From Nanobdellota archaeon (GTDB taxonomy: Archaea > Nanobdellota > Nanobdellia > Pacearchaeales > GW2011-AR1), in NCBI GenBank assembly GCA_022561055.1, contig JADFRY010000001.1, positions 57,025-121,024 on the forward strand: DNA of 64,000 bases. The letters are read 5' to 3'. Made by a program: the position numbers and the translations under genes. Position 1 is the stretch's first letter, and each line of letters opens with the position of its first letter. This document shows, one piece after another, positions 10,327-62,699 of this stretch. A model generated the notes under the pieces. The model did not search any database. It had not been told where the DNA came from and saw only the letters and a program-made list of their open reading frames with translations.

Positions 10327-12457
10327 CTCCTGCTAAGATAGAAAGAGTGAGAATTGATAATAATGCTGTTGCTATGTAAAGTAGGATTCCTCTTTTTAAG
10401 TTTCGGGATAGTTCGTATTTTTCTCTTAGTTTGTCTTTTCCGGCATCTACTGTAACTAATGTTGCTGTCAGTATGAAAATTATTTCAACAATGTAAATTC
10501 CTATCGATACTTGTATGAAATAAGGAGGAATCATTTCTGTTATGTTGAATATATTTGTGATGTTTGCTATTGAGCCGAAGCCTGCTAATTCTTGGCCTCC
10601 TAGTCCTGCGGTTGTCAGGCCTTGTAATCTATTTAGAATCATCGTAATCATCGCTGATAGACCAACTACAATTCCTGCTAGTAAAGGTGCGAGGAAGACC
10701 ATGTTTGATTTCATGTCTGAGACTACTTCTGCCAGTAAATCACGGAGTCTTTCATTGATTTTTTGGATGTTTTTTACATACTCAGAGATTGACATTAGAC
10801 TTCTTGCCGCTATTTGAAGACCTTTTTTAACAGACTCTACTAAAATCCTCATGCTTGTTGCAATTAAGGCAGAAGGATAGTAAATTATTGCGCCTCTTCT
10901 CGGATGGAATATTGCTTTTTCTAAAGACATGCCTCGTTGTTGTATGTTTTGGCTGACTAGACTGAAGAAAGTTTGAGTTCTTTGTCCTTGAGTTAATTGA
11001 GCAATTTTTGAAAATGCGATTTCTGCAGGAGTTCCGTCGCCCAGTCTGTTTCCCAACTGGAATAATGAATTTGTGAATTCACTTTCAAGTTCTATTGTTT
11101 TATTTCTTGCTTTTATCAAGTCTCTGGTTTTCATTTTGTATGTTATTGAGAAAAATAAAGCGATTGATAAGGGGATGAAGAGACTCAGTAAGATTGCTAT
11201 TATTCCAAAAGGTCCTACCACATCGCCGTTTTGTAGTTGTTTAAAGTCAAATATTTTTAAATCTTGAAAAAATGGAAGACCGAGTTCACTGAAAGTATAA
11301 TCGCTTTGCAGGCCTAACGGGCCAGTTATAAAATCTATTTGGAATATGAATGGTAGAAATCCTAAAATTAGTAGAGGTAAGGCTATTGAGAAAGCGACAA
11401 ACCAAGGTTTTCTGGATTTGAATTTATAATATTGTGGATTTAATTCTAAGATTGAAGTTTCGCCGTAACCACCGGGTCTTTTTAGCAAGACTTCCGAAGT
11501 CATGTAAAATACGAGAAATGGTATGATTAAATTGAAGAAGATGAAGATGTGGTGCCATTGTATTAATCCGCCGAGAAGAGTCGATGCCAATGGTAAGAGA
11601 GCAAGACCGAGTGTTGGGAGAATAATTCCGAGCATGTATAAATTTGTTAGAGGACTTCTAATTTCTCTCGAATAACGGAGCATTTTTTCGTAGACGCCAT
11701 CGAGGATTACTTGTAATGCTTTTTCTAAAATCTGCACTCTTCTTGTTTCTGATGGCTCGTAAAGACTCGATTCAATTAAATGGAAGGATTCGATAAATTC
11801 TGGTGCATAATCGCGCCATGTTTCTAAGTAGTTATCGAGAGATTGTTTTATGCTTGAGAATTTGCCGACTTCAACGTCGTAAAATACTTTTTTGAAATCC
11901 AGAGAAAGCGGGGTTGGGAGATGTTGTGAGGCAAAATCTATTGCTCTTTCTAAATTTGAGGTGTGTTTCATATATACTACAAGATATAAGATTGCAGGAA
12001 CCATTTGAGAGGAGGCTTTTAGGCGCCAGGAGTTTGCCAATCTTCGCGGCATTGTATATATATAATAGAAAACAAAGAGGCTTGCTAATATCCCGAGGAA
12101 GGCGAATAAGAGTTGAATTGTTCCGGTGACTAGATATATTGCCATGGTGATTAAAATAATGCCAAAGAAAATTAGCAATAAAGAAAATACTGCGAGAGTT
12201 AGAGCTTGACTCGGAGTGACTTCTAAGTGAGCTATATCCAGATATTTTTGTACTTTTTCTTTTTCTTTTTTTGAGATTTTTATTTTTACTAAGTTTCCTA
12301 AAGTTTGAGCCCATCTTCTATAGCGCGACATTTCTGGAAGCATTTCTTGTTTGAATGTGATATACTCGCGAGAATATCTTTGGTCAGCAGAAGAAGAACG
12401 CATTTCAGTCTCTATTTTTTTACTATATTTTCTGAGAATTTCATCTGTTGTCGGCAT
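10301..12457 (-). CDS. type IV pilus platform membrane protein (FlaJ/TadC/PilC-like, T2SS-F domains)
   Basis: 718 aa, two blocks of TM helices separated by cytoplasmic domains; sits between ATPase and pilin genes. Confidence 0.6.
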   Translation of the reverse strand: MPTTDEILRKYSKKIETEMRSSSADQRYSREYITFKQEMLPEMSRYRRWAQTLGNLVKIKISKKEKEKVQKYLDIAHLEVTPSQALTLAVFSLLLIFFGIILITMAIYLVTGTIQLLFAFLGILASLFVFYYIYTMPRRLANSWRLKASSQMVPAILYLVVYMKHTSNLERAIDFASQHLPTPLSLDFKKVFYDVEVGKFSSIKQSLDNYLETWRDYAPEFIESFHLIESSLYEPSETRRVQILEKALQVILDGVYEKMLRYSREIRSPLTNLYMLGIILPTLGLALLPLASTLLGGLIQWHHIFIFFNLIIPFLVFYMTSEVLLKRPGGYGETSILELNPQYYKFKSRKPWFVAFSIALPLLILGFLPFIFQIDFITGPLGLQSDYTFSELGLPFFQDLKIFDFKQLQNGDVVGPFGIIAILLSLFIPLSIALFFSITYKMKTRDLIKARNKTIELESEFTNSLFQLGNRLGDGTPAEIAFSKIAQLTQGQRTQTFFSLVSQNIQQRGMSLEKAIFHPRRGAIIYYPSALIATSMRILVESVKKGLQIAARSLMSISEYVKNIQKINERLRDLLAEVVSDMKSNMVFLAPLLAGIVVGLSAMITMILNRLQGLTTAGLGGQELAGFGSIANITNIFNITEMIPPYFIQVSIGIYIVEIIFILTATLVTVDAGKDKLREKYELSRNLKRGILLYIATALLSILTLSILAGVALGGIAG

Positions 12458-12597
12458 CTACAAACCTCTTTTTTATTTATTTAGTAATGAAAAGGAAAGT
12501 TATAAAGATTGCTAACGAGTTTTGTTGGAGTTTTATTGGAAATGAATGTTTTGCAGGAATGATTAGATTTATAATAATTGGATTATTTTATTATCAC

Positions 12598-12753
12598 ATG
12601 AAGAAAAAAGGGATAATTGTTGCGCAGAGTATGATTGTTTGGTGGATTCTTGCAATTCTCGGTTTAGTTGTGTTACTTATTTTGTATATGGTTTTTAGTG
12701 GGAAAGGCCAGGAGCTGATTGAGTTTTTTGAGAATGTAAGGAGGTTTAGATGA
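12598..12753 (+). CDS. mini pilin-like protein (51 aa) with class III signal peptide
   Basis: Internal start MKKKG|IIVAQSMIVWWILAILGLVVLLIL inside listed ORF 12448..12753; stop overlaps next gene start (ATGA). Confidence 0.35.
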   Translation: MKKKGIIVAQSMIVWWILAILGLVVLLILYMVFSGKGQELIEFFENVRRFR

Positions 12754-13559
12754 ATAAACGGGCAATTGCAGGAATAGCTGTTGTTAGTATAATTTTAGTG
12801 GCATTTGCGTTGATTTTAGGTACAGTGATTATTTGGAAATCTTATGGTGGTTCTGGAGGTTTTATTAATATATTTAAGATTATTATTCCGAGTTTTGGGG
12901 GAGAGCAGCCGAGGGCTGAAGAAATTGTAATAATACGTTATGGTATTTTAGATGATAATGTGCAGTATTCTGAAGACGGTAGAAACTGGTTTGATTTTCC
13001 AGAATTACTCGTGGTAGATGATAAGGAATTTAAAGGAAAAGATTTAAGACAGGATTTTGAGGGTTATTATTATGGTGAAGGGAGACAGAATGAATTGCCT
13101 GTTGATATAAAACTAAGTCCAAAAGCACAGTCTGAATTTTATCCAAAGAATTTTGAAATTCCCTTTCTTAATGCCGAGATTGAAAGATTTTGCAAAGAAA
13201 AAGATGATATTAGATGTAAGCTTGGTGGTAAGAGTGTGGGTCCTTATTTTGTAAGAGTTCTTTTGAAGAATTATGCTGGAGAAAAACTTACAGATGAAAG
13301 ACCTGGAACAGATTATGGTGATTTTTTAGTAAGCCTTGATGGAAAGATTTTCTTTAGAGAATCCGGTAAGTCTGGTTCTGGAAGGAGTGAGGTTACTAAG
13401 TTAACTGATAGTCATAGGACAATTATTAATGCAGTTAGTAGTTGGAGAGAGAGTGTTTTTGAAAAGCCTATTACTATCTCAGGTTTTGGCGATTTCGAAA
13501 CTGAGAAGATCGATGATTATATTGTGGTAAATTTGAATGAACTGTTTAAGTTAAAATGA
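12750..13559 (+). CDS. pilin-like protein with N-terminal class III signal/TM
   Basis: MNKRAIAG|IAVVSIILVAFALILG then soluble domain. Confidence 0.55.
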   Translation: MNKRAIAGIAVVSIILVAFALILGTVIIWKSYGGSGGFINIFKIIIPSFGGEQPRAEEIVIIRYGILDDNVQYSEDGRNWFDFPELLVVDDKEFKGKDLRQDFEGYYYGEGRQNELPVDIKLSPKAQSEFYPKNFEIPFLNAEIERFCKEKDDIRCKLGGKSVGPYFVRVLLKNYAGEKLTDERPGTDYGDFLVSLDGKIFFRESGKSGSGRSEVTKLTDSHRTIINAVSSWRESVFEKPITISGFGDFETEKIDDYIVVNLNELFKLK

Positions 13560-22957: not shown

Positions 22958-23082
22958 TGTCCCCACGGAGAATTGAACTCCGGTCTTAACCTATTCGCGA
23001 GTTCACTTCTTATGGTAGAGTTCATTACTAAAATGAGCTCCCTCACCGCAAGGTTATGTTCTATCCACTAAACTATGGGGAC
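22958..23082 (-). tRNA. tRNA-Arg (anticodon GCG) with ~53-nt intron at 37/38
   Basis: GTCCCCATAGTTTAGTGGATAGAACA-TAACC-TTGCGG..[intron]..A-GGTTA-AGAC-CGGAGTTCAATTCTCCG-TGGGGAC-A; acceptor and T arm canonical. Confidence 0.75.
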
Positions 23083-39146: not shown

Positions 39147-40274
39147 TTGTTGATGAGAGGAAATTTAGTTAAAAAAGGAATTATATCTGTTTTTTTGGTT
39201 GTATTTATAATATACTTTATTCCAGGGGTAATTGCACCTTGTCCTGTAATTGTGGCTCCTCCACAAAAATTTATTGATCTTGATGATAATAATCGCGCAT
39301 TAATAGTTTTTAATGAAAAAGAAAATAAAGAAATTACAGTTATTGAACCAACTTTTCATGGAAATGCTCAAGATTTTGGAATGATAATTCCATTTCCTGA
39401 TAGACCAGAACTATCAGAAGCTGATGAAAATCTTTTTAATGAGCTTGAAGATTTAACAAATCCAATTATTGCTGGAGAGCTTGGCATTACCTCAACTGGT
39501 AGTAGTTTTAAAGATGTGGAGATTATTGAAGTGAAAGATGTTGGAGATTTTACAGCCACGGTTTTGACAGCTGAAAATACACTCGGTTTAATAAAATGGT
39601 TGAATGATAATAACTATGCCTTTCGGACAGGCGATATTGAGAATTTGGAATATTATGTAGATGAAGGAGGGTACTTTTTTGTTGTTTTAAAAGTAAATGT
39701 AGAAAAAGCAAAAGTAGATGAGAATGGAAATATTAATGGAAGACTTAGTCCAATTGAGTTCAGCTATAATTCTGATAAACCAATGTTGCGTATTAGAGTT
39801 ATGAGAAGCGATATGGAAGGTATGGGAGTCACACTTTATACACTTTCTGATTCACCATATTATGTTCCTGGAACAAAAATACTGTTTAGTAGGAAGCTGA
39901 CAGAATTTGATTTTGATGTGGCACCTACTTTAAAAAAATATGCTGTTTCTGGTGATTGGTTACTTAGAAGCGATATTAGATTTGATCCTCCAAATATAGA
40001 AAAAGATTCTTTCTTAAAAAAAGGAAATAATAATTTAATTATTGAGAGTCCTGATAAATTCAAAATTGTTGATCCTCATTTATTAACTAAAGAAAGAGGG
40101 ATATTGATTGCCAATGGTCCTATTTTATATCTTGAGGAAGAGGAAATAGGAGATTATTTCGATTATCTTAAAAGGGAAAAGTATGGGTTAATGGTCTTCT
40201 TGAATGGTCTTCTTTTTGGTATAATAATTGTTTTGATAGTTTTATTTATTAGGGGAAAGGATAGATATAAATGA
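39147..40274 (+). CDS. secreted protein with pilin-like N-terminal signal (LVKKG|IISVFLVVF) and C-terminal TM anchor
   Basis: N-terminal KKG + hydrophobic helix; C-terminal 'LLFGIIIVLIVLFIRGKDRYK'. Confidence 0.4.
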   Translation: MLMRGNLVKKGIISVFLVVFIIYFIPGVIAPCPVIVAPPQKFIDLDDNNRALIVFNEKENKEITVIEPTFHGNAQDFGMIIPFPDRPELSEADENLFNELEDLTNPIIAGELGITSTGSSFKDVEIIEVKDVGDFTATVLTAENTLGLIKWLNDNNYAFRTGDIENLEYYVDEGGYFFVVLKVNVEKAKVDENGNINGRLSPIEFSYNSDKPMLRIRVMRSDMEGMGVTLYTLSDSPYYVPGTKILFSRKLTEFDFDVAPTLKKYAVSGDWLLRSDIRFDPPNIEKDSFLKKGNNNLIIESPDKFKIVDPHLLTKERGILIANGPILYLEEEEIGDYFDYLKREKYGLMVFLNGLLFGIIIVLIVLFIRGKDRYK

Positions 40275-40349: not shown

Positions 40350-40449
40350 AGCCTGCAGAGGGAGTTGAACCCCCGACCTACTGCTCTCTTTTGAAGCTGA
40401 ATTTTGCTTTCAGTACAAGGCAGCCGCTCTACCACTGAGCTATGCAGGC
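40350..40449 (-). tRNA. tRNA-Thr (anticodon TGT) with 28-nt intron
   Basis: GCCTGCA-TA-GCTC-AGTGGTA-GAGC-G-GCTGC-CTTGTA[intron CTGAAAGCAAAATTCAGCTTCAAAAGAG]A-GCAGT..GGGGG-TTCAACT-CCCTC-TGCAGGC-T. Confidence 0.75.
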
Positions 40450-41470: not shown

Positions 41471-41714
41471 GAATTCACTCTGTTCATTTCTGATGTCCTC
41501 ACAATCTTTTAGGATTGCTAAGGGTTTCATAAATTATGGTGAGAGAATTTGGTTTAAAAAGTTATTGTTGATAGTTAGGTTTAATTTAAAGAATTATGTA
41601 GTAAATTCTTGAGATTATTTTTAGTTTATTATAGATAAATATTAAAAAGGGTGGAAATGTTTATAAAGAAATAAATATTATTTATCTATAATATATTTAT
41701 CATAAAGAGGAAAT

Positions 41715-43736
41715 ATGAATAAACAAGCAAAGAATGCGTTGTTGGGTGTTTTGATATTTGGAGTAACTTTATCTATTTTATTTTTGATGAGTTTTGTTTT
41801 AGCTGATTTTGCTAGTTGGTCAGCTGTTGCAGACGAAGGAAATATTACAACATTTAATGAAGATACACCTACTCTTTTAAACTTCACTGTAAATAATACA
41901 GGCACAGCCCACAATATTACATCGGTTAATATTACTCTTCCCACTAGTAGTTTGTCATTCAGCGATGGTTTTTTAATGAATCTTATTGCAACAGGTAATG
42001 TGCATTTAATAGTTAACACTTCATTTGATGTTTCAACTGCAAGTGCAAATTGGTCAAATAATACTAATGAGGGTTTTGGGGACCTTATTCCAAATTTAAC
42101 AAGTGCGGAATTCCAAATTAATATTTCTGGCACAGCTCCGGGTAAATATAATATTAGCGTTAAGATAACAGATGATGCTGGCGCCCAAACAGAGCGTAAT
42201 TTAACTATTCATGTAAATGACACAACTACACCATATTCAGTTACTTTTATGCCAACAAGTCCTGCTCAAACTGCAAATCTTTCAGTGAGAGAGGTTACAA
42301 TTAATGTTTCAGCGAATGATACGCACAGCGGGATTGGATCATTTAATATATCTTTATATCTTACAAATGAAAGTTCTACTGCTAATGGTGCAGCAAATTC
42401 AAGCATAATACATTCTGGAGGAGCTTTAAATGATACAGGGTATGTAAATTTCTCTGGGTCTCATTTAGTAGATGGGTTTTATATAATTAATATAACGAGT
42501 ATCAATGATAATCCTGATCTTATAAATTTAGGAACCAATAACACAAATTCTACAGGAGTTCAAAGGAATATAACTATAGATGCGACTCCTCCAACTACTG
42601 TTATTTTTAACTCTGACACAGATTCTGGAAATTTCTCAAAAAGAGAAGTTATAATTAATGCTTCTGCTAATGCAACTTACACAGGTATAGATACATTCAA
42701 CATATCCTTATACCTAACTAATGGAAGCAGTGTTGCAAATACAAGCATGGTAGAAGCTAATCATGCTCTTAACGCTTCAGGATATGTGAACTTCTCGGGA
42801 AGCCATTTAGTAGATGGGTTTTATTTGATAAATGTAACAGGAATTAATGATACTGCAAATAATGTTAATGTAACAGGAGTTCAACTAAATATCACAATAG
42901 ATACAGTAGCCCCATCAATTACTTTAGCTAAATCAAGCAGTTCTGATAAAAATAAACTAGTTATAGATATTGCAATAACTGATTCAACTAGCGGGGTTAA
43001 TGGAATAGCCTGTACTGCAACTGGAGGAGGCACAGGAAACATAGCTATTGGAGGGGGTTCTGACACCAGCCAGACAGCTACTCAAGAAGGGTTAAGCTGT
43101 AGTAGTTCTAATGTTTATACGATAAAATGTAAAGACCACGCTGGAAATACAGGAAGCAAAGAAGGAACATTTAGTACGGATAGTTGCAGTGGTGGTGGAA
43201 GTCCTGGCGGTAGCGGACCTGGCCCTGGAGGCTCTGAGTGGATAACTACTTTTATTGAAGATGATGAACCACTTGAGACAAGAGGAAGTATTACTAAAGA
43301 ATTAGCTGAAAGACATAGAGTTAAGATTAATGTGGTTGGAGTAGTACATTATATAGGTATTATAGCCGATGGATTAACTGGAACTAGTGCAACAATACAA
43401 GTTTCATCTAGTCATGAGCAAGAATCAACATTAAATATTGGAGAAACAGCAAAGGTTGATGTAAGTGATCCTATTGATAACGTGTATGACTTAAGTATTA
43501 CATTAAACTCAATTGAGAGTAATAAAGCATCTGTTACTGTTTTACCACTACAAGAATCATATCAAGCAGGAGAGCCATCGATAACACCATCTCCGCCAGA
43601 GGAGGAAGAAGAGATTGTTCCTGGAGAATTAGCTGGAGCAGCTAGAAGCTTGGCTTGGCTATGGATCTTAATCGTAGTTATTGGGATAGTAGTTGTAGTT
43701 TGGGTTGTTGTTAGAAAGAGGCAAAAAGCTGGATAA
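41715..43736 (+). CDS. surface (S-layer-like) glycoprotein paralog 1: signal peptide, N-x-S/T-rich, C-terminal TM anchor
   Basis: Signal MNKQAKNALLGVLIFGVTLSILFLMSFVLA; >40 NxS/T sequons; C-terminal 'LAWLWILIVVIGIVVVVWVVVRKRQ'. Confidence 0.6.
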   Translation: MNKQAKNALLGVLIFGVTLSILFLMSFVLADFASWSAVADEGNITTFNEDTPTLLNFTVNNTGTAHNITSVNITLPTSSLSFSDGFLMNLIATGNVHLIVNTSFDVSTASANWSNNTNEGFGDLIPNLTSAEFQINISGTAPGKYNISVKITDDAGAQTERNLTIHVNDTTTPYSVTFMPTSPAQTANLSVREVTINVSANDTHSGIGSFNISLYLTNESSTANGAANSSIIHSGGALNDTGYVNFSGSHLVDGFYIINITSINDNPDLINLGTNNTNSTGVQRNITIDATPPTTVIFNSDTDSGNFSKREVIINASANATYTGIDTFNISLYLTNGSSVANTSMVEANHALNASGYVNFSGSHLVDGFYLINVTGINDTANNVNVTGVQLNITIDTVAPSITLAKSSSSDKNKLVIDIAITDSTSGVNGIACTATGGGTGNIAIGGGSDTSQTATQEGLSCSSSNVYTIKCKDHAGNTGSKEGTFSTDSCSGGGSPGGSGPGPGGSEWITTFIEDDEPLETRGSITKELAERHRVKINVVGVVHYIGIIADGLTGTSATIQVSSSHEQESTLNIGETAKVDVSDPIDNVYDLSITLNSIESNKASVTVLPLQESYQAGEPSITPSPPEEEEEIVPGELAGAARSLAWLWILIVVIGIVVVVWVVVRKRQKAG

Positions 43737-43939
43737 GAGTTTTATTAATATATTAAAATACCAATAGATAAATTGGATTTGGAACAACAAGAATCAAAAA
43801 CTTTTTGGAAATATAAAGATTGTATTGCTGCATAATGGAGTAAAGAAAGATTTATAAATAAAAGATTTCTAATTACTATTATAAACATTAGGAATAAAAG
43901 AGGATCAAACGATTGATGATACATACAAAAAAATTAGTG

Positions 43940-45649
43940 ATGAATAAACAAGCAAAGAATGCGTTGTTGGGTGTTTTGATATTTGGAGTAACTTTATCTA
44001 TTTTATTTTTGATGAGTTTTGTTTTAGCTGTTCATCAAGTTTCCTTTGAGGATTGGAGAGCAGATGTAGATATTTCCGCTTTCGGCATAGATGAAGATAC
44101 TTATGTAGTGATTAATGTAACAGTTAATGATACGGACACTGGCTCTTTGGCCAACATAACGCAGGTAAACATCACTTTCCCTGCCGGGTTTATAATCGCT
44201 TCAACTTTTGACCTTAATTCAAATAATACTGATGCCGTAGCTGTAAATACTAAGACAGTTGGAATTAGTTTCACTAATACAACTCTTGGTGGAAGGTTTG
44301 TCTTTAGTTGGGAGAACCTTACTGGAGGAGTAATACAGAATTCAACTAGCTTAACTCACTTTTTGTTTAACGTGACCTCTGCTAAACCTGGCAAGTTTAA
44401 CATTACTGTTAGAACACTGAATTTCTCGACTTTCATAGAGACTAACCTTACTATTGTAATCAATGATACAACTATTCCAGCTAACAAAACATTTGAAAGT
44501 GCTCGTTCGTTTGGTGCAGGCTCTAACAATTCTCTAAATCACATATCTATTAACCTTAGTGTTGGAGATAATGCTTTTGCAGATACTGTGAGGTTCTTCT
44601 TGTGGAACTCTACTAATGATGTTATAAATCAAACTAATATTACTGTTGATGGGAGAGGAAGATTTGCTTGGATTAACATTTCCACAGTATCAGACAACAG
44701 TTCTCAAGGTATTAGTGACGGCACTTATAGAATAAATGCAACTGCAAACGACACTACCGGAAATGACAATGTAACTAGTGTGAACGGCGTTTCTAGAACA
44801 ATAATTATAGATACAGTAGCCCCAGAAATTACTTTAACTAAATCAAGCAGTTCTGATAAGAATAAACTAGTTATAGATATTGCAATAACTGATTCAACTA
44901 GCGGGGTTAATGGAATAGCCTGTACTGCAACTGGAGGAGGCACAGGAAACATAGCTATTGGAGGGGGTTCTGACACCAGCCAGACAGCTACTCAAGAAGG
45001 GTTAAGCTGTAGTAGTTCTAATGTTTATACGATAAAATGTAAAGACCACGCTGGAAATACAGGAAGCAAAGAAGGAACATTTAGTACGGATAGTTGCAGT
45101 GGTGGTGGAAGTCCTGGCGGTAGCGGACCTGGCCCTGGAGGCTCTCAGTGGATAACTACTTTTATTGAAGATGATGAACCACTTGAGACAAGAGGAAGTA
45201 TTACTAAAGAATTAGCTGAAAGACATAGAGTTAAGATTAATGTGGTTGGAGTAGTACATTATGTAGGTATTCTAGCTGATGGATTAACTGGAACTAGTGT
45301 AACAATACAAGTTTCATCTAGTCACGAGCAAGAATCAACATTAAATATTGGAGAAACAGCAAAGGTTGATGTAAGTGATCCTATTGATAACGTATATGAC
45401 TTAAGTGTTACATTAAACTCAATTGAGAGTAATAAAGCATCTATTACTATTTTACCAATACAAGAATCATATACTCTTGAAGAGGAAGAAGCAGCACCAG
45501 AAGAGGTGGAAGAAGGACCTCCTGCCCTTGGTCCTGAAGAATTAGCTGCTGCACCTAGAAGCTTGGCTTGGCTATGGATATTAATCGTAGTTATTGGGAT
45601 AGTAGTTGTAGTTTGGGTTGTTGTTAGAAAGAGGCAAGTAGCTAAATAA
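43940..45649 (+). CDS. surface glycoprotein paralog 2 (identical signal peptide and near-identical C-terminal 290 aa to paralog 1)
   Basis: Start moved to ATG 43940 (MNKQAKN..); C-terminal block from TVAP.ITL.KSSSSDKNKLVIDIAITD onward ~95% identical. Confidence 0.6.
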   Translation: MNKQAKNALLGVLIFGVTLSILFLMSFVLAVHQVSFEDWRADVDISAFGIDEDTYVVINVTVNDTDTGSLANITQVNITFPAGFIIASTFDLNSNNTDAVAVNTKTVGISFTNTTLGGRFVFSWENLTGGVIQNSTSLTHFLFNVTSAKPGKFNITVRTLNFSTFIETNLTIVINDTTIPANKTFESARSFGAGSNNSLNHISINLSVGDNAFADTVRFFLWNSTNDVINQTNITVDGRGRFAWINISTVSDNSSQGISDGTYRINATANDTTGNDNVTSVNGVSRTIIIDTVAPEITLTKSSSSDKNKLVIDIAITDSTSGVNGIACTATGGGTGNIAIGGGSDTSQTATQEGLSCSSSNVYTIKCKDHAGNTGSKEGTFSTDSCSGGGSPGGSGPGPGGSQWITTFIEDDEPLETRGSITKELAERHRVKINVVGVVHYVGILADGLTGTSVTIQVSSSHEQESTLNIGETAKVDVSDPIDNVYDLSVTLNSIESNKASITILPIQESYTLEEEEAAPEEVEEGPPALGPEELAAAPRSLAWLWILIVVIGIVVVVWVVVRKRQVAK

Positions 45650-45740
45650 GATATGCGCTAGATAAGTTTGTTATTTGGTTTAAAAAGTTATTGTTAGTAG
45701 TTATGTAAATTATTAAATAGTATGGGATGTTTTTTTCTTT

Positions 45741-46675: not shown

Positions 46676-48565
46676 ATGGGGGTAAGAAGAATGATTAGAT
46701 CGTTTTGGAGTAGGAAAGGACAAATTAGTTTTTTTATAATTCTTGCTATTGTAATAGTTGCGGCAGTAGTCATCTTCTTTGCTTTGAGGACAAATATTTT
46801 TGTTACAGGGATTGACCCTGAGTTTGTGCCTATTTATAATTTGTATGGGGAATGTGTGAAGCAGGAAACTGAAAATGCTCTGAATTTGTTAGGGACCCAA
46901 GGAGGCAAGATTGATGTTGGAGAGTATGTTCCTGGAAGTGAGTATGCTCCTTTTTCATCGCATTTGAATTTCTTAGGTTTTCCTATACCTTACTGGTATT
47001 ATGTTTCTGGAAACAATTTAATTAAAGAAAATGTTCCTTCAAGAAATGATATGGAGCAAGAGATTTCAGAGTTTTTAGAAGAGAGAATAAACGAGTGTGA
47101 TTTTAGTAATTTTTATGAGCAGGGATTTTTTATTGAGTTAGATGAAAGTCCAAGAGTTAAAACTAAAATAGAAGATAATAAGGTTAGTGTTGATGTTAGT
47201 GCTAGTGTTGTTGTTTTCAGAGAAGATAAAAGCGCGAGGAAAAATTTGCACCGAGTTGTGGTAGAAAGCAAGATTGGTAAGTTTCACAAAATTGCAAGAG
47301 AGATTTATGACAAGGAAAAAAACGAGGCGTTTTTGGAAGAGTATGCTGTCGATGTTTTAAGACTTTACGCTCCCGTTGACGGTGTTGAAGTTCAGTGCAG
47401 TCCGAAAATTTGGAAGACGCAAGAGGTTGTTAATAATTTACAAGAAGGATTAGAAGCAAACATTAGGGCATTAAAACTTAAAGGAAAATATTATAATTTA
47501 AATGAGAAAGAGGATGAGTATTTTGTAATTGACCATAATGTTGACGAGTCAGTTAATTTTTTATATTTAAGAAATTGGCCAAGTAAAATTGAAATTACTC
47601 CTGCTAATGAGGAATTAATGATTGCAGAACCAATTGGAAACCAACAAGGTTTAGGAATTTTAGGTTTTTGTTATGTTCCTTATCATTTTGTTTACGACGT
47701 AAGCTTTCCTGTTTTGATACAAATACATGATGGATTAGAAATTTTTCAGTTCCCTATTTCTGTGATTATTGATAATAATCTGCCTAGAGAAGCAGAACTT
47801 TTGAGTTTTGCAGAGGAAGAGGATATTGATATATGTAGTTTTAAGGAAGGGAATGTGCAGGTTTATACTTTTGATAGTAATTTGAATCCTGTCGAGGCTG
47901 AAATAAGTTATAAGTGCTTTGATAGTATTTGCAGGCTTGGAGAAACAGAGAGCTCTGGGGGAGATGCTGTTCTTAATACAAATATTCCTTTATGTGTTAA
48001 TGGTTATATAATTGCCAAAGCCGAGGGATTTGTAGAGAAGAAGCAGTTGTTTTCATCCAATTCTGAAATAATTGCCGACGTTATCCTTGATAGAGAATAT
48101 GAAGTTGAGGTTGAATTAAGAGTCGCTGGGAAAGAGAAAAAAAATACAACTGCGATTGTTCATTTTAGCGGAGAAGACGGAACAGCAAGTGTAGTTTTGC
48201 CTGAAAATAATAAAGTTAAGTTGAAAGAAGGGCTATATGATATAGATGTTTTTGTTTATGGAGATTCGAGTGTTGTGATTCCAAGTTCTAGGAAAAGGCA
48301 ATGTTTTGAAGTGTCAAAAGGAGGTTTGTTTAGCTTTTTTGGGGCAACTAAAGAAGAGTGTATTGATATTGAAATCCCTGAAGTAAGAATAGATTACGCG
48401 TTGACAGGAGGAGGAAAAACAAATACTTATATTCTGGAATCTGAGTTGAAAAAAGGCAGAGTGGTTATAGATGTTAGTGAATTGCCTAAACCAAATTCAC
48501 TTGAACAGTTGCAATATAATTACGAAATATTTAATAGTCTAGGAGTTGAGATGGTGTTTATATGA
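46676..48565 (+). CDS. large extracellular protein with pilin-like class III signal (SRKGQ|ISFFIILAIVIV)
   Basis: 629 aa; N-terminal KGQ + hydrophobic helix; ATGA overlap with downstream giant ORF. Confidence 0.5.
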   Translation: MGVRRMIRSFWSRKGQISFFIILAIVIVAAVVIFFALRTNIFVTGIDPEFVPIYNLYGECVKQETENALNLLGTQGGKIDVGEYVPGSEYAPFSSHLNFLGFPIPYWYYVSGNNLIKENVPSRNDMEQEISEFLEERINECDFSNFYEQGFFIELDESPRVKTKIEDNKVSVDVSASVVVFREDKSARKNLHRVVVESKIGKFHKIAREIYDKEKNEAFLEEYAVDVLRLYAPVDGVEVQCSPKIWKTQEVVNNLQEGLEANIRALKLKGKYYNLNEKEDEYFVIDHNVDESVNFLYLRNWPSKIEITPANEELMIAEPIGNQQGLGILGFCYVPYHFVYDVSFPVLIQIHDGLEIFQFPISVIIDNNLPREAELLSFAEEEDIDICSFKEGNVQVYTFDSNLNPVEAEISYKCFDSICRLGETESSGGDAVLNTNIPLCVNGYIIAKAEGFVEKKQLFSSNSEIIADVILDREYEVEVELRVAGKEKKNTTAIVHFSGEDGTASVVLPENNKVKLKEGLYDIDVFVYGDSSVVIPSSRKRQCFEVSKGGLFSFFGATKEECIDIEIPEVRIDYALTGGGKTNTYILESELKKGRVVIDVSELPKPNSLEQLQYNYEIFNSLGVEMVFI

Positions 48566-51500
48566 TAAAGAAAAGGTTTGGAGAATTGTTTTTGGTTGTT
48601 GGAATTTTGATTTTTATAATTGCAGGTTTGGAATTTAGTGTTGCGCAGGTTGGTTCAGGTTATTCTTATTCTGATAAGGAATTTTCTGGGAGTAATAGAG
48701 GCAGTGCAAGTTTTGTCAATTATGGTGCACCTCCTGATTTTCAGAAATATTACTCTTCAGAGGGCAGACTCAGTACTTATTTTCCAGTTTTAGCCGATAG
48801 AGATAGTTGTTTTGCGAGGCAGGATATTTTATTACAAGTTGCTCCTGTCGGTTGTCAGCCAGCTGTTGTAAGAAGCGATTTATTAGCAGAGCAAAATGTT
48901 CCGGTATTTTGTCAGCTTGATGCTATAAAAGTGAATCCTTTGTTAGATATTAAGCAGATAAGGAGTATAAGGTTTAGGGGAGATTACCCTAAGGAAGTTG
49001 TCGGAGTTGGTTTTCATCCTGCGAGAGCTGCTTTGAGGACAAGAGATAAACTTTTAGGCAGTCCATTAATAAATAATATTGGATATGTCGTTGTTGTTTT
49101 GAAGAGAAACCCAAATGAAGAAGAATTGCCGAATTTTATTAATTTTACCTTAAGTGCGAGACTCGATTATTATTCTGGAAATGCTTTAGGAATTGGAAAA
49201 AGTGAGTTTTTGCTTAGGGAAGTTACAGACGCTGAATGGAAGTCTGAAAGGAATAGACAAAGTTTCTTTAAAGGACAATATTTTGCGAGGCTTATCGATG
49301 CAGACCCTAATTTTGCAACTATTGCTATTTATCATGGAGAAAGGAAAATTTCGACAACAAGAGTTCAAAGGGGAAAGTCTTCAGAAGATATTTATGTGCC
49401 TGGCCAATATTGCCAGGTAGCTTTGAAGCTTTCTTATGATGGTTTTGTTTCTGCAGACAAGATTGCTAAGATTCGGATTGATGATGAGATCATTGATGTT
49501 TATCGAGGAAGCAGGTTTCTGAATGGCAAATGTCAAGTAAAAAGTATAAATGGGGATAGTACGAATGGAACCGTAGAAATTTCTTGTGGCGGTTCAAGAT
49601 CATTTACTTTAGGATTACAAGCAAGATTCTTGAAAGTTGGAGACCTTGTTAATTACACGAAAGGAGATAGAGATTTATGGGAGATTACAGAAATTAATGA
49701 AAAGGAGAGACAATATAATATAACAAAATATTCTAATGAAGGTGTAATAGAAAGTAAGGTTGTCAATATTAGTGATGTTTTTCCAGAGGTTTCTGATGTT
49801 TTATTTGAGGCAAGATATACTGGCGAGACAAAAGAATATTTCAAAAAGGCAATTGATAGTTATGAGGAAGTAGTCGATAGTTATGCGCGTGAAAAAAAAT
49901 CTGAGGCACGTGATATTGAAGGAACACCAACTTATGGAGAGCTAGCTTTGGGAAAAGCAATTGAGCTTGCGTCAGATTTTAAGAAAGAAGCAACCGAAGC
50001 CCGTTTAATAGAGAAATTTATTGATGTTTATCCTGACGCCGATAATAGTTCTTTTTATACTAGCAAATTAAATGAATTATATACGAAAGACAGCAGCTTG
50101 GCAGGAACAGTTATCGATATAGACAATGACTTTAAGACAATTAAGTTGCTGGAGATTAGGATTCCTGCGAAAAGGTCGAGTGCCGAGTTTGTTTTAGGTG
50201 TTGAAAGAATAACTTTGCAGAGTGGAGAGAGTCATTCATTTATTAGTATAGGAGATAAAAATGGCTTAGTCATTATTGAAAAGGTAGAGTTTGATAAGGT
50301 TAAGGTAACTTCTTATTGTGGGGAAGATGATAGAGGTAATAGAGAGTGGAGTAAATCAATCAGAATAGGAGAGAGTGAAACTTCTTGCGGGGTTAGTTTG
50401 AGATTGGTCGATGTTAATCTTGAAGAGTTTGCAAGAGTAAAAATTAGCCCTGTCGTTAGAACGACTAGCGAGACTGAGTTTACGGTCGGTGTTGGAATCG
50501 AGAAAAGAGCAATCAAGCTTAGTCCTGACAAGACAAAAGAAAAGATTGAGAATTTGAACAAGAGCATTAAGAAGTGGGAGTCAATTTCAAATAATTTAGG
50601 TGATGTTGTCAGAGGTTTGAAAGGAGCTTGCTTTGCAACTGCCGGAGTTTTAACTGTGAAGAATTTCTTTACAGGATTTAGTGGAGAATCTTTGGCAAGA
50701 CAGAAAGTTATGCGAGGTTCTGACGGCTGGACTGAATGGTGTAAAGATAGACTGAAACCAAGAGGACAGTATGATACTTTAACTCAATGTTATAATGATA
50801 AAGCTTCACAAATAAAAAAAGATGTTGATGCATATGCGAAAGCAATCTCTCAATCAAATAAAAAGATGAAAGCAATTGAGGATGATAGTATAATTTCTAG
50901 TGGAGGATTTTTTGGAGGAGATAGTATTGATATCGATGAAGCTAAGAAAGATTTAGTTAAAGTATTAGAGAGTGAATGTTCGAGTGTTAGTACAGGACTG
51001 GGCGGAGAAAATGGTGATATCGGAAAGTTAATTGCTGGTGTAAAACTAGAAGATTTAGGATATCAACAATTAAGAGACATGTATTTTAATTGTCTTGTCG
51101 TTAAAGGAGGCCAGCTTTCTAGTGGTGGTGTAGGATTGAACAGGGCTAATGAAGACTTGAAGTTAATCGGTGAAAGGATTTTGGAGAGGAAAGAAACTTC
51201 ACAAGTTAGAGAAGGTCTCGGTGAATCATTAAAAAGAACTGGTTTAGAAGGTTTTAGAATTGTGTCTTATGGAGGGGAAAATGCAATAAGAGGCGAGTAT
51301 TATGGGGGGATTTTGAAACCAGGAGATATAAATAATGTTGATATTAATAATAATACACCTGCTCAAGTTATAACTTATGACGGGGATCCTTATCTTATAA
51401 TTTTACAAAAAACTAGTGTGGAGAATTATAGACCAGAGAAGATTTATGCATTGACGCGAGAGAGTAATTATAAAGAGGCCACTCTTGTCGAGGGCGCGCT

Positions 51501-53937
51501 TGCTTCAAAGATTAGGAGAATCCATATTTATAGAAAAATCGATGCTGGTTCTTATAATAATAGATTTGCCAAGGGCGAGGATGTTGTGAGGTATTATGAG
51601 AGAGAGCCATATAAAGGGACGCCGGCAATTGTGCCTATAGATGTTGATGAGGGATGGTATGTTGCAACAAAACAAACATTGCCTGGTTTCGGAAAAATAA
51701 AAGCATTTGAATCGTCAGGAAGACCGGTTAGTTTCTGGGTTTGTAATATCATGCAAGATAAAAAAGTAGGATTTTTCTCTCCTGGTTTTGGCGATGATAA
51801 ATGTGTGCAGTTTAATATGAATACAGGACAGCCTTTGGATAAATTCCCTGGTTTGAGCGAGCGAAAGACAAGACAGTTAGTCGATAGAGCAGTTCAGGCA
51901 TTAGAGGATGCAGCCAAAGAGACAGGGAAGAAAAAGGGAGAGCTTGTTAATATTCTTGGGAGACGTCTTAGTGTTGGAGGTTTTGCTGCGAGTATTCCTG
52001 GAACGCAATGCCAAGATTTTATGAGTCCTGAAGATTGTTTGAAGTTATTTAATGTTTGCGACCCTGTGATATGCCCAAGTTCGAGATGCAATTTGGGTGG
52101 TACATATTATGTTTCAGATGTTATTCAATCTGGCGTCATAGGGAGTGTTTTGTTATGCTTGCCTAATTTTAAAGAAGGTATACTAGTGCCTGTTTGTTTG
52201 ACAGGAATTAAAGCTGGAATCGATGGTTATTTGTCAATTTTGAAATCTCATCAGCAATGTTTGCAAGAGAATTTGGAAACCGGAAGAACAATAGGGATTT
52301 GTGATTTAGTAACTTCTGTTTATACTTGTGAGTTTTTCTGGAGACAGGCGGCGCCAGTCGCAAATGTTTTGTTACCGAAAGCTGTTGAGTTTCTTTACAC
52401 AGGCGGACAAGGACAGGCGAGAGGCGGAGGAGAGTATTTAACTGTTCAGACTGCCTGGGAAAATGCGCAAGACTCTGTTAATTTCTTTACACAAGAATAT
52501 GCAGCTAATTCTTTAGAAGCGTTTAGAGTCAGGTCTATTGCAGAAGCAGGCACAACTTTGTGTAGGGCTTTTGTTTCTGTTAAAGGCCCTAAGTCGTTTG
52601 AAACACTAATTGAGCCAGATTCGCCGCCGCAGTTCCATGCATGGTTTAGTTCAATACCATTTAGCGACGCGACTGTTCCTGCCACGGCTCAGTATAAAGT
52701 ATTTTATCATATTTTTTCAGGGGATGATTCTGGAGTTGCATTTAGCGTTTATTTGAAAGACCCTCCTGAAACTTCATTCTATTACACGACTCCGACGTTA
52801 ATTGTTGCTTCAGGGTTTGCACCGAGAGGACAGTTTGCTACAGAGACGAGAGACTTTACTGCGCCGGAAGGTTATAAGCAGTTATGCGTGAGGATAAATA
52901 ACAAGGAAGAGTGCGGGTTTAAACAAGTATCTTCTAGTTTCGCTCTTAATATTATTAGAGATGAATTTGTGAGTGATGAAATTGAAAGGGGAGATATAAC
53001 AAGAGAGAGTGAATGTATTTCAGGCAAATTGAATGTTGCGGCTTTGTTAAACCCAAATATCCAAGAGGCAGCACAAGAAGCAATTGACCCTGCCGTTTAT
53101 AATAGAGGAGTAGTTAGGATTTGTGCGACTGATAATCCAGGAAAGGGAACAGAGCCAGAGAGGTTTGTGGATGCTGGTTATTGCGATGACCAGAGAGTAA
53201 GATGCTGGGTCGATATGAATAGTGTTGAAAGAGCTCTTACAGTTGATAATATTGGAGAAAAAGAAAAAACTATAGAAAAATTAGAAGCAAGGCAGAAAGA
53301 GCTTTTGCAAGAAGGAAAGGAAAAAGAGTTTTATAGTGAGACGAAAGCTAGTGAGGTTAGTGAAAGGTTAAGAAGAGAGAAACTTTTCAGAGTCAGCAAG
53401 GATAATGTCGAAGGTAGAATTGATGAGATTGATAATGATTTAGAAAAAGTATTTTTTAATTATCAGAGGGCAGAGTTTCTTTTGTTGAAAGGAGATGTTT
53501 ATGCTAAGGTTGCTAAGAATTTATTGACAAAATTGCAGGGAGTTTTGGAGATAGATCCTTCTGGGGGAGTCGAGGATAAAAAAGAAAAAGAAGAAAATAT
53601 AGAATTGCTTTTTTCTGAGAGATTTAGTCTTAGAAATAGTGAAGATGATTTAATTATACGTTATAAAAAGTATCAGGATAGTACATTAGATAATACAGAG
53701 CTATTTGTTCCTAAGGATACTAAAGTTTTGGTTTATAAGACTAAGAATAATGTTGTTGCAGATTTGAGTAGAACAATTGATTTTTCTGGAAAAGGGGAGT
53801 CTGTCATAGCTGTGAAAGAAAATTCGATGTATTTACGGATTTTGGATGATTTTGATTTAGTTAGGTTAGACAATGCGAAGATTTTATTTAGCGAAGATGG
53901 TAGTCTTAGCCTAAAGTTTGATGGTTCTGGTAACTAA
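48562..53937 (+). CDS. giant extracellular/cell-surface protein (1791 aa), N-terminal signal-anchor, Cys-rich segment, C-terminal coiled coil
   Basis: Uninterrupted 5.4-kb ORF; N-terminal 'LFLVVGILIFIIAGLEF'; 'CDPVICPSSRCNLGG' Cys cluster. Confidence 0.6.
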   Translation: MIKKRFGELFLVVGILIFIIAGLEFSVAQVGSGYSYSDKEFSGSNRGSASFVNYGAPPDFQKYYSSEGRLSTYFPVLADRDSCFARQDILLQVAPVGCQPAVVRSDLLAEQNVPVFCQLDAIKVNPLLDIKQIRSIRFRGDYPKEVVGVGFHPARAALRTRDKLLGSPLINNIGYVVVVLKRNPNEEELPNFINFTLSARLDYYSGNALGIGKSEFLLREVTDAEWKSERNRQSFFKGQYFARLIDADPNFATIAIYHGERKISTTRVQRGKSSEDIYVPGQYCQVALKLSYDGFVSADKIAKIRIDDEIIDVYRGSRFLNGKCQVKSINGDSTNGTVEISCGGSRSFTLGLQARFLKVGDLVNYTKGDRDLWEITEINEKERQYNITKYSNEGVIESKVVNISDVFPEVSDVLFEARYTGETKEYFKKAIDSYEEVVDSYAREKKSEARDIEGTPTYGELALGKAIELASDFKKEATEARLIEKFIDVYPDADNSSFYTSKLNELYTKDSSLAGTVIDIDNDFKTIKLLEIRIPAKRSSAEFVLGVERITLQSGESHSFISIGDKNGLVIIEKVEFDKVKVTSYCGEDDRGNREWSKSIRIGESETSCGVSLRLVDVNLEEFARVKISPVVRTTSETEFTVGVGIEKRAIKLSPDKTKEKIENLNKSIKKWESISNNLGDVVRGLKGACFATAGVLTVKNFFTGFSGESLARQKVMRGSDGWTEWCKDRLKPRGQYDTLTQCYNDKASQIKKDVDAYAKAISQSNKKMKAIEDDSIISSGGFFGGDSIDIDEAKKDLVKVLESECSSVSTGLGGENGDIGKLIAGVKLEDLGYQQLRDMYFNCLVVKGGQLSSGGVGLNRANEDLKLIGERILERKETSQVREGLGESLKRTGLEGFRIVSYGGENAIRGEYYGGILKPGDINNVDINNNTPAQVITYDGDPYLIILQKTSVENYRPEKIYALTRESNYKEATLVEGALASKIRRIHIYRKIDAGSYNNRFAKGEDVVRYYEREPYKGTPAIVPIDVDEGWYVATKQTLPGFGKIKAFESSGRPVSFWVCNIMQDKKVGFFSPGFGDDKCVQFNMNTGQPLDKFPGLSERKTRQLVDRAVQALEDAAKETGKKKGELVNILGRRLSVGGFAASIPGTQCQDFMSPEDCLKLFNVCDPVICPSSRCNLGGTYYVSDVIQSGVIGSVLLCLPNFKEGILVPVCLTGIKAGIDGYLSILKSHQQCLQENLETGRTIGICDLVTSVYTCEFFWRQAAPVANVLLPKAVEFLYTGGQGQARGGGEYLTVQTAWENAQDSVNFFTQEYAANSLEAFRVRSIAEAGTTLCRAFVSVKGPKSFETLIEPDSPPQFHAWFSSIPFSDATVPATAQYKVFYHIFSGDDSGVAFSVYLKDPPETSFYYTTPTLIVASGFAPRGQFATETRDFTAPEGYKQLCVRINNKEECGFKQVSSSFALNIIRDEFVSDEIERGDITRESECISGKLNVAALLNPNIQEAAQEAIDPAVYNRGVVRICATDNPGKGTEPERFVDAGYCDDQRVRCWVDMNSVERALTVDNIGEKEKTIEKLEARQKELLQEGKEKEFYSETKASEVSERLRREKLFRVSKDNVEGRIDEIDNDLEKVFFNYQRAEFLLLKGDVYAKVAKNLLTKLQGVLEIDPSGGVEDKKEKEENIELLFSERFSLRNSEDDLIIRYKKYQDSTLDNTELFVPKDTKVLVYKTKNNVVADLSRTIDFSGKGESVIAVKENSMYLRILDDFDLVRLDNAKILFSEDGSLSLKFDGSGN

Positions 53938-58425: not shown

Positions 58426-58547
58426 TTTACCTTTACAATCTTTCAAAAATTTGGTTTATATAGTTTTTGTTTTAATAAAATCTTTGTTAAGTTTGCATAA
58501 CAACAATCTACAACAATGTTTAAATACTCTAAATCTAAAAAGCACAT

Positions 58548-62600: not shown

Positions 62601-62699
62601 GCTCCCGTAGCTCAGTCTGGATAGAGCAACAGACTTCTAATATTGTGCTTTGTAAAGGGAGAAATCTGTGGGTCGCAGGTTCAAATCCTGTCGGGGGCA
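62601..62699 (+). tRNA. tRNA-Arg (anticodon TCT) with ~25-nt intron
   Basis: GCTCCCG-TA-GCTC-AGTCTGGATA-GAGC-A-ACAGA-CTTCTA[intron]A-TCTGT..GCAGG-TTCAAAT-CCTGT-CGGGGGC-A. Confidence 0.75.

Follow-up and report, generated by a model that had tools for sequence, protein, structure and literature searches.

Shared ends and long-diverged heads in two tandem genes for predicted surface glycoproteins of a Nanobdellota archaeon: a probable case of gene conversion

In a stretch of 64,000 nucleotides (nt) from a Nanobdellota archaeon (the window: assembly GCA_022561055.1, contig JADFRY010000001.1, positions 57,025 to 121,024 of the forward strand), two genes of one family, here called A and B, lie in tandem on the same strand with nearly the same beginnings and ends and deeply diverged middles. 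How could two neighbouring genes come to share an export signal, a stalk and a membrane anchor, and carry such different heads? The likely answer is homology-bounded gene conversion between two old tandem paralogues, an exchange that was probably repeated. A preliminary description of this DNA had placed two genes here, and two complete open reading frames (ORFs) on one strand were indeed seen: gene A (41715..43736, plus strand, 673 amino acids (aa), NCBI IIA87_00645, matching P0001 at 100%) and gene B (43913/43940..45649, plus strand, NCBI IIA87_00650 with 577 aa, P0002). The length of gene B depends on its start codon: 569 aa from the ATG at 43940, and 577-578 aa from the ATG at 43916 or the TTG at 43913. 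The window, with a GC content of ~34%, is archaeal: it encodes the ribosomal proteins S3Ae, L44e and S8e, and GINS51, TFIIB and SRP54/FtsY.

Shared islands and diverged middles

Members of the family are built in a common order: signal peptide, domain D1, one to several immunoglobulin-like (Ig-like) domains of the D2 type, domain D3, a Gly/Ser linker, domain D4, an acidic linker, a transmembrane (TM) helix and a basic tail. Between A and B, near-identity at the DNA level was confined to islands within this order. The 5' island (41715..41805 in A and 43940..44030 in B, plus strand) is 91 nt long and 100% identical. It begins exactly at the ATG of gene A, encodes the signal peptide exactly and ends in the predicted cleavage region (..VLA); the DNA upstream of it is unrelated between the two genes. 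The main 3' island (42897..43562 in A and 44807..45472 in B, plus strand, offset 1910) covers D3, the Gly/Ser linker and D4 in 666 nt with 15 mismatches (97.7% identity), and starts at the conserved inter-domain motif IDTVAP. It contains a perfect core of 285 nt (42951-43235; permutation P=0.003 for the perfect run), with mismatches on both sides. The acidic linker that follows (43563-43641 in A) carries an indel, and is ~44% identical in amino acids with a synonymous divergence (dS) of ~0.39. Near-identity then resumes in the TM-anchor island (43642..43724 in A and 45555..45637 in B, plus strand, offset 1913), with one mismatch in 83 nt. The C-terminal tails and the DNA past both stop codons are diverged or unrelated.

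The signal peptide MNKQAKNALLGVLIFGVTLSILFLMSFVLA, which the preliminary description had reported in both genes, and the near-identical TM anchor that it saw at both ends, were thus confirmed at the nucleotide level. It had also described a single 3' block of about 750 bp or 290 aa that differed by a handful of substitutions. The near-identity stood; the continuous block gave way to one island of 666 nt and one of 83 nt, with 15 mismatches in the former and the diverged, indel-bearing acidic linker between them, and the coordinates given for the block in gene B were ~10 nt off. The middles had been called unrelated. They are in fact homologous and collinear, with 30-42% amino-acid identity: a BLASTP alignment (E 1e-32) that takes in the signal peptide covers 348 aa at 36%, the domain order is equal, and identity per domain was 42% for D1 and 30-34% for D2. 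Both proteins keep all 14 columns that are invariant in the family.

Synonymous sites were compared along the two genes. The dS between A and B was 0 in the signal peptide, 0.016 in D3, 0.038 in D4 and 0.045 in the TM region, and in D1 and D2 it was 1.3-1.5 or not computable (saturated). Identity at third codon positions followed the same course (97-100% in the islands, 38-40% in the middles). Such a pattern is far beyond chance, and because synonymous sites are near-identical only in the islands, constraint at the protein level is not its cause.

Inside the duplicated block, two ORFs of nearly the same sequence were listed on the minus strand (42881-43066, 61 aa; 44725-44976, 83 aa). These antisense ORFs are almost certainly artefacts of the duplication and not genes.

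Separate ancestries of heads and stalks

The heads and the stalks of A and B gave conflicting relationships. The D1/D2 part of gene A is 52-67% identical to P0003-P0005, which come from other organisms, and 27-37% identical to B; in D3/D4, the identity between A and B rises to 94-97%, against ~50% for the next relative. Neighbour-joining trees with bootstrap were built from 65 D1 and 52 D4 sequences. In the D1 tree, A grouped with L001 and L003 (97% bootstrap) and the grouping of A with B received 0%, whereas the D4 tree united A and B with 100%. For the D1 of gene B, at least six relatives in other species were closer than gene A. In a search of 5.8 billion proteins the best match to the head of B was P0015 at 45%, and the D1 distances from B to proteins of other species were 0.52-0.56; this word-indexed search with the head (262 aa) missed P0002, which holds the query exactly, so that its negatives need caution. 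The heads are old lineages and the ends are recent copies, and recombination therefore took place. As in concerted evolution, segments of these paralogues are closer to each other than to those of relatives, and the identity extends to synonymous sites.

Tandem family genes were found in seven other species, and most of these pairs are uniformly diverged. The pair at locus L022 departs from this: at their 3' ends its genes have 552 nt in common at 76%, and a block of 84 nt that spans the promoter and the 5' end matches at 92%. An orthologous pair of one long and one short gene is held by L021, so that orthologues and paralogues could be compared segment by segment. The long genes of L021 and L022 are 60% identical in the N-terminal part and 41% at the C-terminus; the long and short paralogues within L022 are 35% identical in the N-terminal part, 69% at the C-terminus and 68% in the signal peptide. 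This comparison demonstrates homogenisation after speciation for L021/L022 (for A and B, the syntenic relative L013 has one family gene only), and L022 is a textbook case of independent concerted evolution that predates the event at A and B.

At L008, in a Woesearchaeota MAG, an in-frame stop divides the second of the tandem family genes (11169-12089 and 12093-12776), with D1 and part of D3 in the first ORF and the remaining D3 and D4 in the next. This gene is either a pseudogene or the product of a sequencing error.

Weighing the possible origins

According to the explanation that we favour, A and B would be old tandem paralogues whose D1-D2 halves come from two branches of the family that parted long ago. 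The signal-peptide, D3-D4 and TM regions would have been overwritten recently, by non-reciprocal homologous recombination between the direct repeats that copied them from one gene onto the other. The tracts would have halted where prior homology ended: at the start codon, the end of the signal peptide, the IDTVAP junction, the acidic linker and the stop codon. Limits that coincide with the ends of family homology are what homology-dependent conversion would predict. More than one conversion event is suggested, because divergence differs among the islands and a perfect run of 285 nt lies inside a mismatched block. In the end, each gene would have a promoter of its own, and the two proteins would carry unlike glycosylated heads above a common stalk and anchor free of sequons. 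A possible advantage is that both proteins would fit the same partner in the envelope or lattice, or that the cell would gain two ligand or host specificities. The preliminary description had proposed gene conversion or cassette exchange as in surface-antigen variation. Synonymous sites, segment trees and the L022 pair speak for the former, and antigen-variation cassette exchange found no support; deletion or duplication through the direct repeats between A and B is mechanistically possible.

Several points weigh against gene conversion between A and B. It is deduced from a single assembled sequence. Homogenised ends are absent from 6 of the 8 tandem pairs in relatives, so that homogenisation does not characterise the family as a whole. 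The short 5' tract of 91 nt from the ATG of A assumes that the earlier signal peptides were similar enough to recombine, and expression, glycosylation and surface location are predictions. Finally, the ratio of nonsynonymous to synonymous divergence (dN/dS) is ~0.8 in the shared block (10 nonsynonymous and 4 synonymous codons), a value that does not point to strong constraint and would also fit neutral conversion, driven by homology and devoid of adaptive meaning.

A rather unlikely alternative is that gene A was duplicated recently and that the D1-D2 part of one copy was then replaced by the head of a distant family member, taken from foreign DNA or from another paralogue, through recombination at the end of the signal peptide and at the IDT.AP junction. 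The island limits do coincide with module limits, the head of B is nearer to those of other species (P0015 and the D1 distances above) than to that of A, and the pair sits in an insertion relative to the syntenic locus L013. But a duplication should also have copied the promoter, the 5' untranslated region, the acidic linker, the tail and the 3' flank, all of which are diverged or unrelated. No donor above 45% was found in the 5.8 billion proteins, by a search that missed the self-match P0002. At the junctions, family members share ~50% of their amino acids, a divergence too great for foreign DNA to recombine there by homology; the islands also differ in their divergence.

We hold it about equally doubtful that selection has preserved the signal peptide and the D3-D4-TM part, both as a shared chassis and as handles for recombination, so that DPANN cells mount interchangeable glycosylated heads on one stalk that has to suit a partner common to both in the envelope. 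If so, homologous recombination, inside a strain or from one strain to another, could shuffle heads for host or ligand recognition, remove them or multiply them, and the locus would be a simple, enzyme-free system for swapping heads on the widespread D4 anchor domain.

Whether either gene could be a silent cassette bears on a further possibility, and the upstream DNA was inspected for expression signals. Upstream of each gene there is a separate GAAA-N2-TTTATAAA box, followed ~40 nt downstream by a GAGG motif, at equal spacing in A and B. For gene A the putative signals span 41654..41710 (plus strand), with the BRE/TATA-like (B recognition element and TATA box) sequence GAAATGTTTATAAA at 41654-41667 and GAGG at 41707-41710, 4 nt before the ATG. 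For gene B they span 43845..43903 (plus strand), with GAAAGATTTATAAA at 43845-43858 and GAGG at 43900-43903, 9-12 nt before the TTG at 43913 and the ATG at 43916. As this GAGG points there and NCBI annotates 577 aa, gene B probably starts 24-27 nt (8-9 codons) upstream of the shared MNKQ ATG. The spacer between A and B (203 nt) is unique sequence apart from these signals, which in both genes are putative and recognised by their motifs. A sigma-70 and terminator scan was uninformative for an archaeon. With expression motifs of their own on two complete genes, neither A nor B resembles a silent cassette.

Programmed surface-antigen or phase variation, in which the shared ends would be the handles of a dedicated switching system, is accordingly improbable. 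Conserved handles do flank the variable exposed part of a probable host-contact protein in a likely episymbiont, and deletions, duplications and hybrids could arise through direct repeats as long as 666 nt at 97.7% identity. The copies are two only, however, both full-length with promoter-like and ribosome-binding motifs; no silent cassettes were seen (P0001 and P0002 are the only members from the genome among the homologues of the word-indexed search, and A and B the only ones in the window by the domain models), and there was neither a recombinase or reverse transcriptase nearby nor a significant invertible-promoter structure. Within ~15 kb no recombinase, integrase, transposase, reverse transcriptase or AglB was found, and the neighbours are housekeeping genes; AglB, which the preliminary description had named as a gene to check for, was not found among all ORFs of at least 400 aa in the window either.

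Two specific switching devices were examined and rejected. For an invertible promoter, the candidate was an inverted repeat of 30 nt (41615-41644 / 41676-41705) around the TATA box of A, which folds no better than shuffled sequences (z = -1.29). For a diversity-generating retroelement, no reverse transcriptase was present in 30 scanned ORFs, and the 15 mismatches are not adenine-specific: transitions and transversions are mixed, and 5 of them have no adenine in either copy.

An assembly artefact, with strain alleles joined wrongly in tandem or reads of the repeat pooled, is more improbable still. The genome is a short-read metagenome-assembled genome (MAG), the perfect repeat of 285 nt exceeds typical k-mers, and no independent assembly was present in the collections searched: exact-protein look-ups of P0001 and P0002 for a second assembly or population variants gave nothing, nor did exact and codon-degenerate scans for the shared block in metagenome DNA. 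Against this, the unique 203-nt spacer carries its own TATA and GAGG signals at the spacing of gene A, the sequences before the starts and after the stops differ, as an allelic mis-join would not produce, and the perfect core still has mismatches to its left and right. Tandem pairs also occur in the assemblies of at least seven other species, one of them with the same mosaic.

The least probable origin is a recent tandem duplication with fast, selection-driven divergence of the middle and conserved ends: exposed surface domains often evolve fast and the middles are still collinear homologues, but selection on the protein cannot yield saturated middles beside 0-4% divergence at the synonymous sites of the ends, the head of A is much closer to heads of other species than to that of B, and in L021/L022 it is the ends, not the middles, that depart from orthology, so that this explanation is effectively refuted by the synonymous contrast and the tree conflict.

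Family, locus and known systems

Domain limits in both genes (all on the plus strand) were taken from the family alignment and from matches to domain hidden Markov models. Gene A consists of the signal peptide (41715-41804), the sequon-rich Ig-like domains D1 (41805-42218) and D2a (42219-42584), D2b (42585-42902), the Cys-containing Ig domain D3 (42903-43178), the Gly/Ser linker (43179-43235), the uncurated β stalk domain D4 (43236-43532), the acidic linker (43533-43637) and the TM helix with basic tail (43638-43733). Gene B consists of the signal peptide (43940-44029), the sequon-rich Ig-like domains D1 (44030-44467) and D2 (44468-44815), the Cys-containing Ig domain D3 (44816-45091), the Gly/Ser linker (45092-45148), the uncurated β stalk domain D4 (45149-45445), the acidic linker (45446-45553) and the TM helix with tail (45554-45646). 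D2b is an internal tandem duplicate of D2a (57% identity in amino acids, 67% in nucleotides), and this extra copy makes gene A longer than gene B; P0003 and P0004, the closest relatives of gene A, have a single D2-type domain. In the family, D2-type domains are connected by NDTT.P or IDT.AP junctions.

Fourteen homologues were retrieved by the word-indexed search, and 68 family loci were found in GTDB species representatives, almost all of them MAGs of Woesearchaeota, Pacearchaeota and Nanoarchaeota, with some Aenigmatarchaeota. An AlphaFold2 (AF2) model of gene A gave an all-β chain between helices at residues 3-28 and 646-672, with a predicted local distance difference test (pLDDT) score of 66 overall and 75-90 in D3/D4. 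The whole model retrieved generic Ig and fibronectin type III (FN3) chains only with Foldseek, and the family profile matched the BIg domains of SiiE (E 1.7e-6) and an FN3 domain. The central regions had been described as rich in N-x-S/T sequons, and this was upheld: A has 37 against 14.0±3.1 expected and B has 24 against 9.4±2.6, and all 61 lie in the D1/D2 heads (9-11 per 100 aa), with zero in the shared D3-D4-linker-TM part. The gene of P0003 adjoins glycosyltransferase genes. A and B are thus predicted to be type-I membrane-anchored, heavily N-glycosylated surface proteins of a DPANN-wide family.

D4 (~100 aa), which has no entry in Pfam or NCBIfam, was modelled alone with a pLDDT of 87. 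Its matches comprised 4,604 representatives of 50%-identity clusters at E ≤ 1e-3 (2,437 with the limit set at E ≤ 1e-10). In nearly all of them the domain immediately precedes a C-terminal TM helix; the proteins measure ~450-2,600 aa, and D4 looks like an uncurated, widespread surface-anchor module. Archaeal S-layer glycoproteins with Ig domains, such as csg of Haloferax volcanii, have a signal peptide, an Ig-like chain, dense sequons and C-terminal membrane anchoring. A and B are predicted to share these four features with them, but lack sequence homology to them and a PGF-CTERM/archaeosortase signal: the C-terminus ..RSLAWLWILIVVIGIVVVVWVVVRKRQ contains no PGF motif and matched no NCBIfam CTERM model. 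Neither protein matched a curated S-layer family in Pfam or NCBIfam, or an S-layer sequence of the PDB by profile. The top Foldseek match of D4 in the PDB was 3U2G, the DUF1608/MSTP domain of the S-layer tile protein of Methanosarcina, and was weak (E 0.076, probability 0.95, TM-score 0.44), with no support from sequence for D4, A or B in Pfam or in a profile search against PDB sequences. For DPANN phyla, Nanoarchaeota among them, a preprint assigns MSTP-like folds to the S-layer proteins (bioRxiv 10.1101/2024.05.28.596244). D4 would likewise be a β-sandwich close to the membrane, with a linker and then a TM helix behind it, but the bulk of A and B is Ig/FN3-like and not made of MSTP tiles. 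The label surface glycoproteins was therefore chosen, not S-layer proteins.

The A-B pair is bracketed by two copies of a 52-nt direct repeat, 79% identical overall and with the exact 23-nt core ATTTGGTTTAAAAAGTTATTGTT: R-left (41547..41598), which precedes the start of L44e by 17 nt, and R-right (45673..45724), 24 nt past the stop of gene B. Because a third, weaker copy (58449-58471) lies upstream of S8e, the motif is probably a promoter element of ribosomal-protein genes and the right copy a duplicated fragment of the L44e promoter, which suggests that the motif was duplicated during the insertion of A-B. The Woesearchaeota MAG with locus L013 has flanking genes that are 57-72% identical in amino acids to those of the window. 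Its order is PGM, GINS, a single family gene, intervening genes, S3Ae, L44e, Zn-ribbon and tRNA-Val, and that of the window is PGM, GINS, DUF2330, tRNA, S3Ae, L44e, A, B, orf87, Zn-ribbon and tRNA-Val. As L44e and the Zn-ribbon gene are adjacent in L013 (13573-14263), A-B-orf87 is an insertion relative to it. The family gene of L013 (7938-9461) directly follows GINS, its start overlapping the GINS stop, and the window has at that position (39147-40274) a DUF2330 protein with a C-terminal TM helix; the surface-protein locus is relocated or replaced between the two. A mobile origin was also considered and rejected: no family member was found on viral contigs of IMG/VR or plasmids of PLSDB, and no integrase lies nearby.

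Downstream of the pair (46676-53937), two large secreted or membrane proteins of 629 aa and 1,791 aa are encoded, without a Pfam match. The start of the 1,791-aa gene overlaps the stop of the 629-aa gene at 48562-48565, and the start of the 629-aa protein, ..SRKGQISFFIILAIVIV, resembles an archaeal class III (pilin-type) signal. Three tRNA genes of 99-125 nt (40350-40449, minus; 62601-62699, plus; 22958-23082, minus), found with Rfam and not with ARAGORN, presumably contain introns.

Surface-protein genes with shared and variable parts are familiar from other organisms, and the sap and emm-like genes may be regarded as functional analogues of A and B. In the sap genes of Campylobacter fetus, a near-identical 5' block encodes the attachment part, the exposed part differs, and recombination reshuffles them; the variation is programmed, with only one promoter, carried by an invertible segment, to activate one among several homologues that are otherwise silent. 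The shared attachment block and the differing exposed part are alike in A and B, but there the main shared block is 3', both genes have promoter-like motifs and no inversion system was seen. The adjacent paralogues emm, mrp and enn of Streptococcus pyogenes have a conserved signal peptide and C-terminal anchor, a variable exposed part and intergenic recombination; they differ from A and B in their coiled coils, in LPXTG/sortase anchoring and in belonging to a bacterial pathogen. Programmed cassette variation is exemplified by pilE/pilS of Neisseria. The closest described analogue is the lpl cluster of tandem lipoprotein-like genes in Staphylococcus aureus, presumed host-interaction surface proteins in which a conserved intragenic stretch mediates homologous recombination and segment trees are incongruent (Tsuru & Kobayashi 2008, PMC2568036). 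Its layout is reversed, with a conserved centre and variable ends where A and B share their ends and differ in the middle, and it comprises many copies of bacterial lipoproteins with rearrangements across several strains (PMC2568036), in contrast to two copies of an archaeal TM-anchored glycoprotein gene in one genome.

The mechanism proposed for A and B is thus well known from bacteria and parasites, and the value of this locus is descriptive and enabling rather than conceptual: a well-supported case of a known evolutionary process, with no new mechanism, in an under-studied DPANN lineage. Cell-surface proteins are prime candidates for the recognition and holding of hosts by DPANN archaea, and almost none have been characterised. 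The A-B pair offers a clean and datable example of concerted evolution, in which the export signal, stalk and anchor were made uniform and two anciently diverged heads persist. By-products are the architecture of the family, the strict split between glycosylated heads and a sequon-free stalk, and the D4 domain, which could serve to find DPANN surface proteins systematically.

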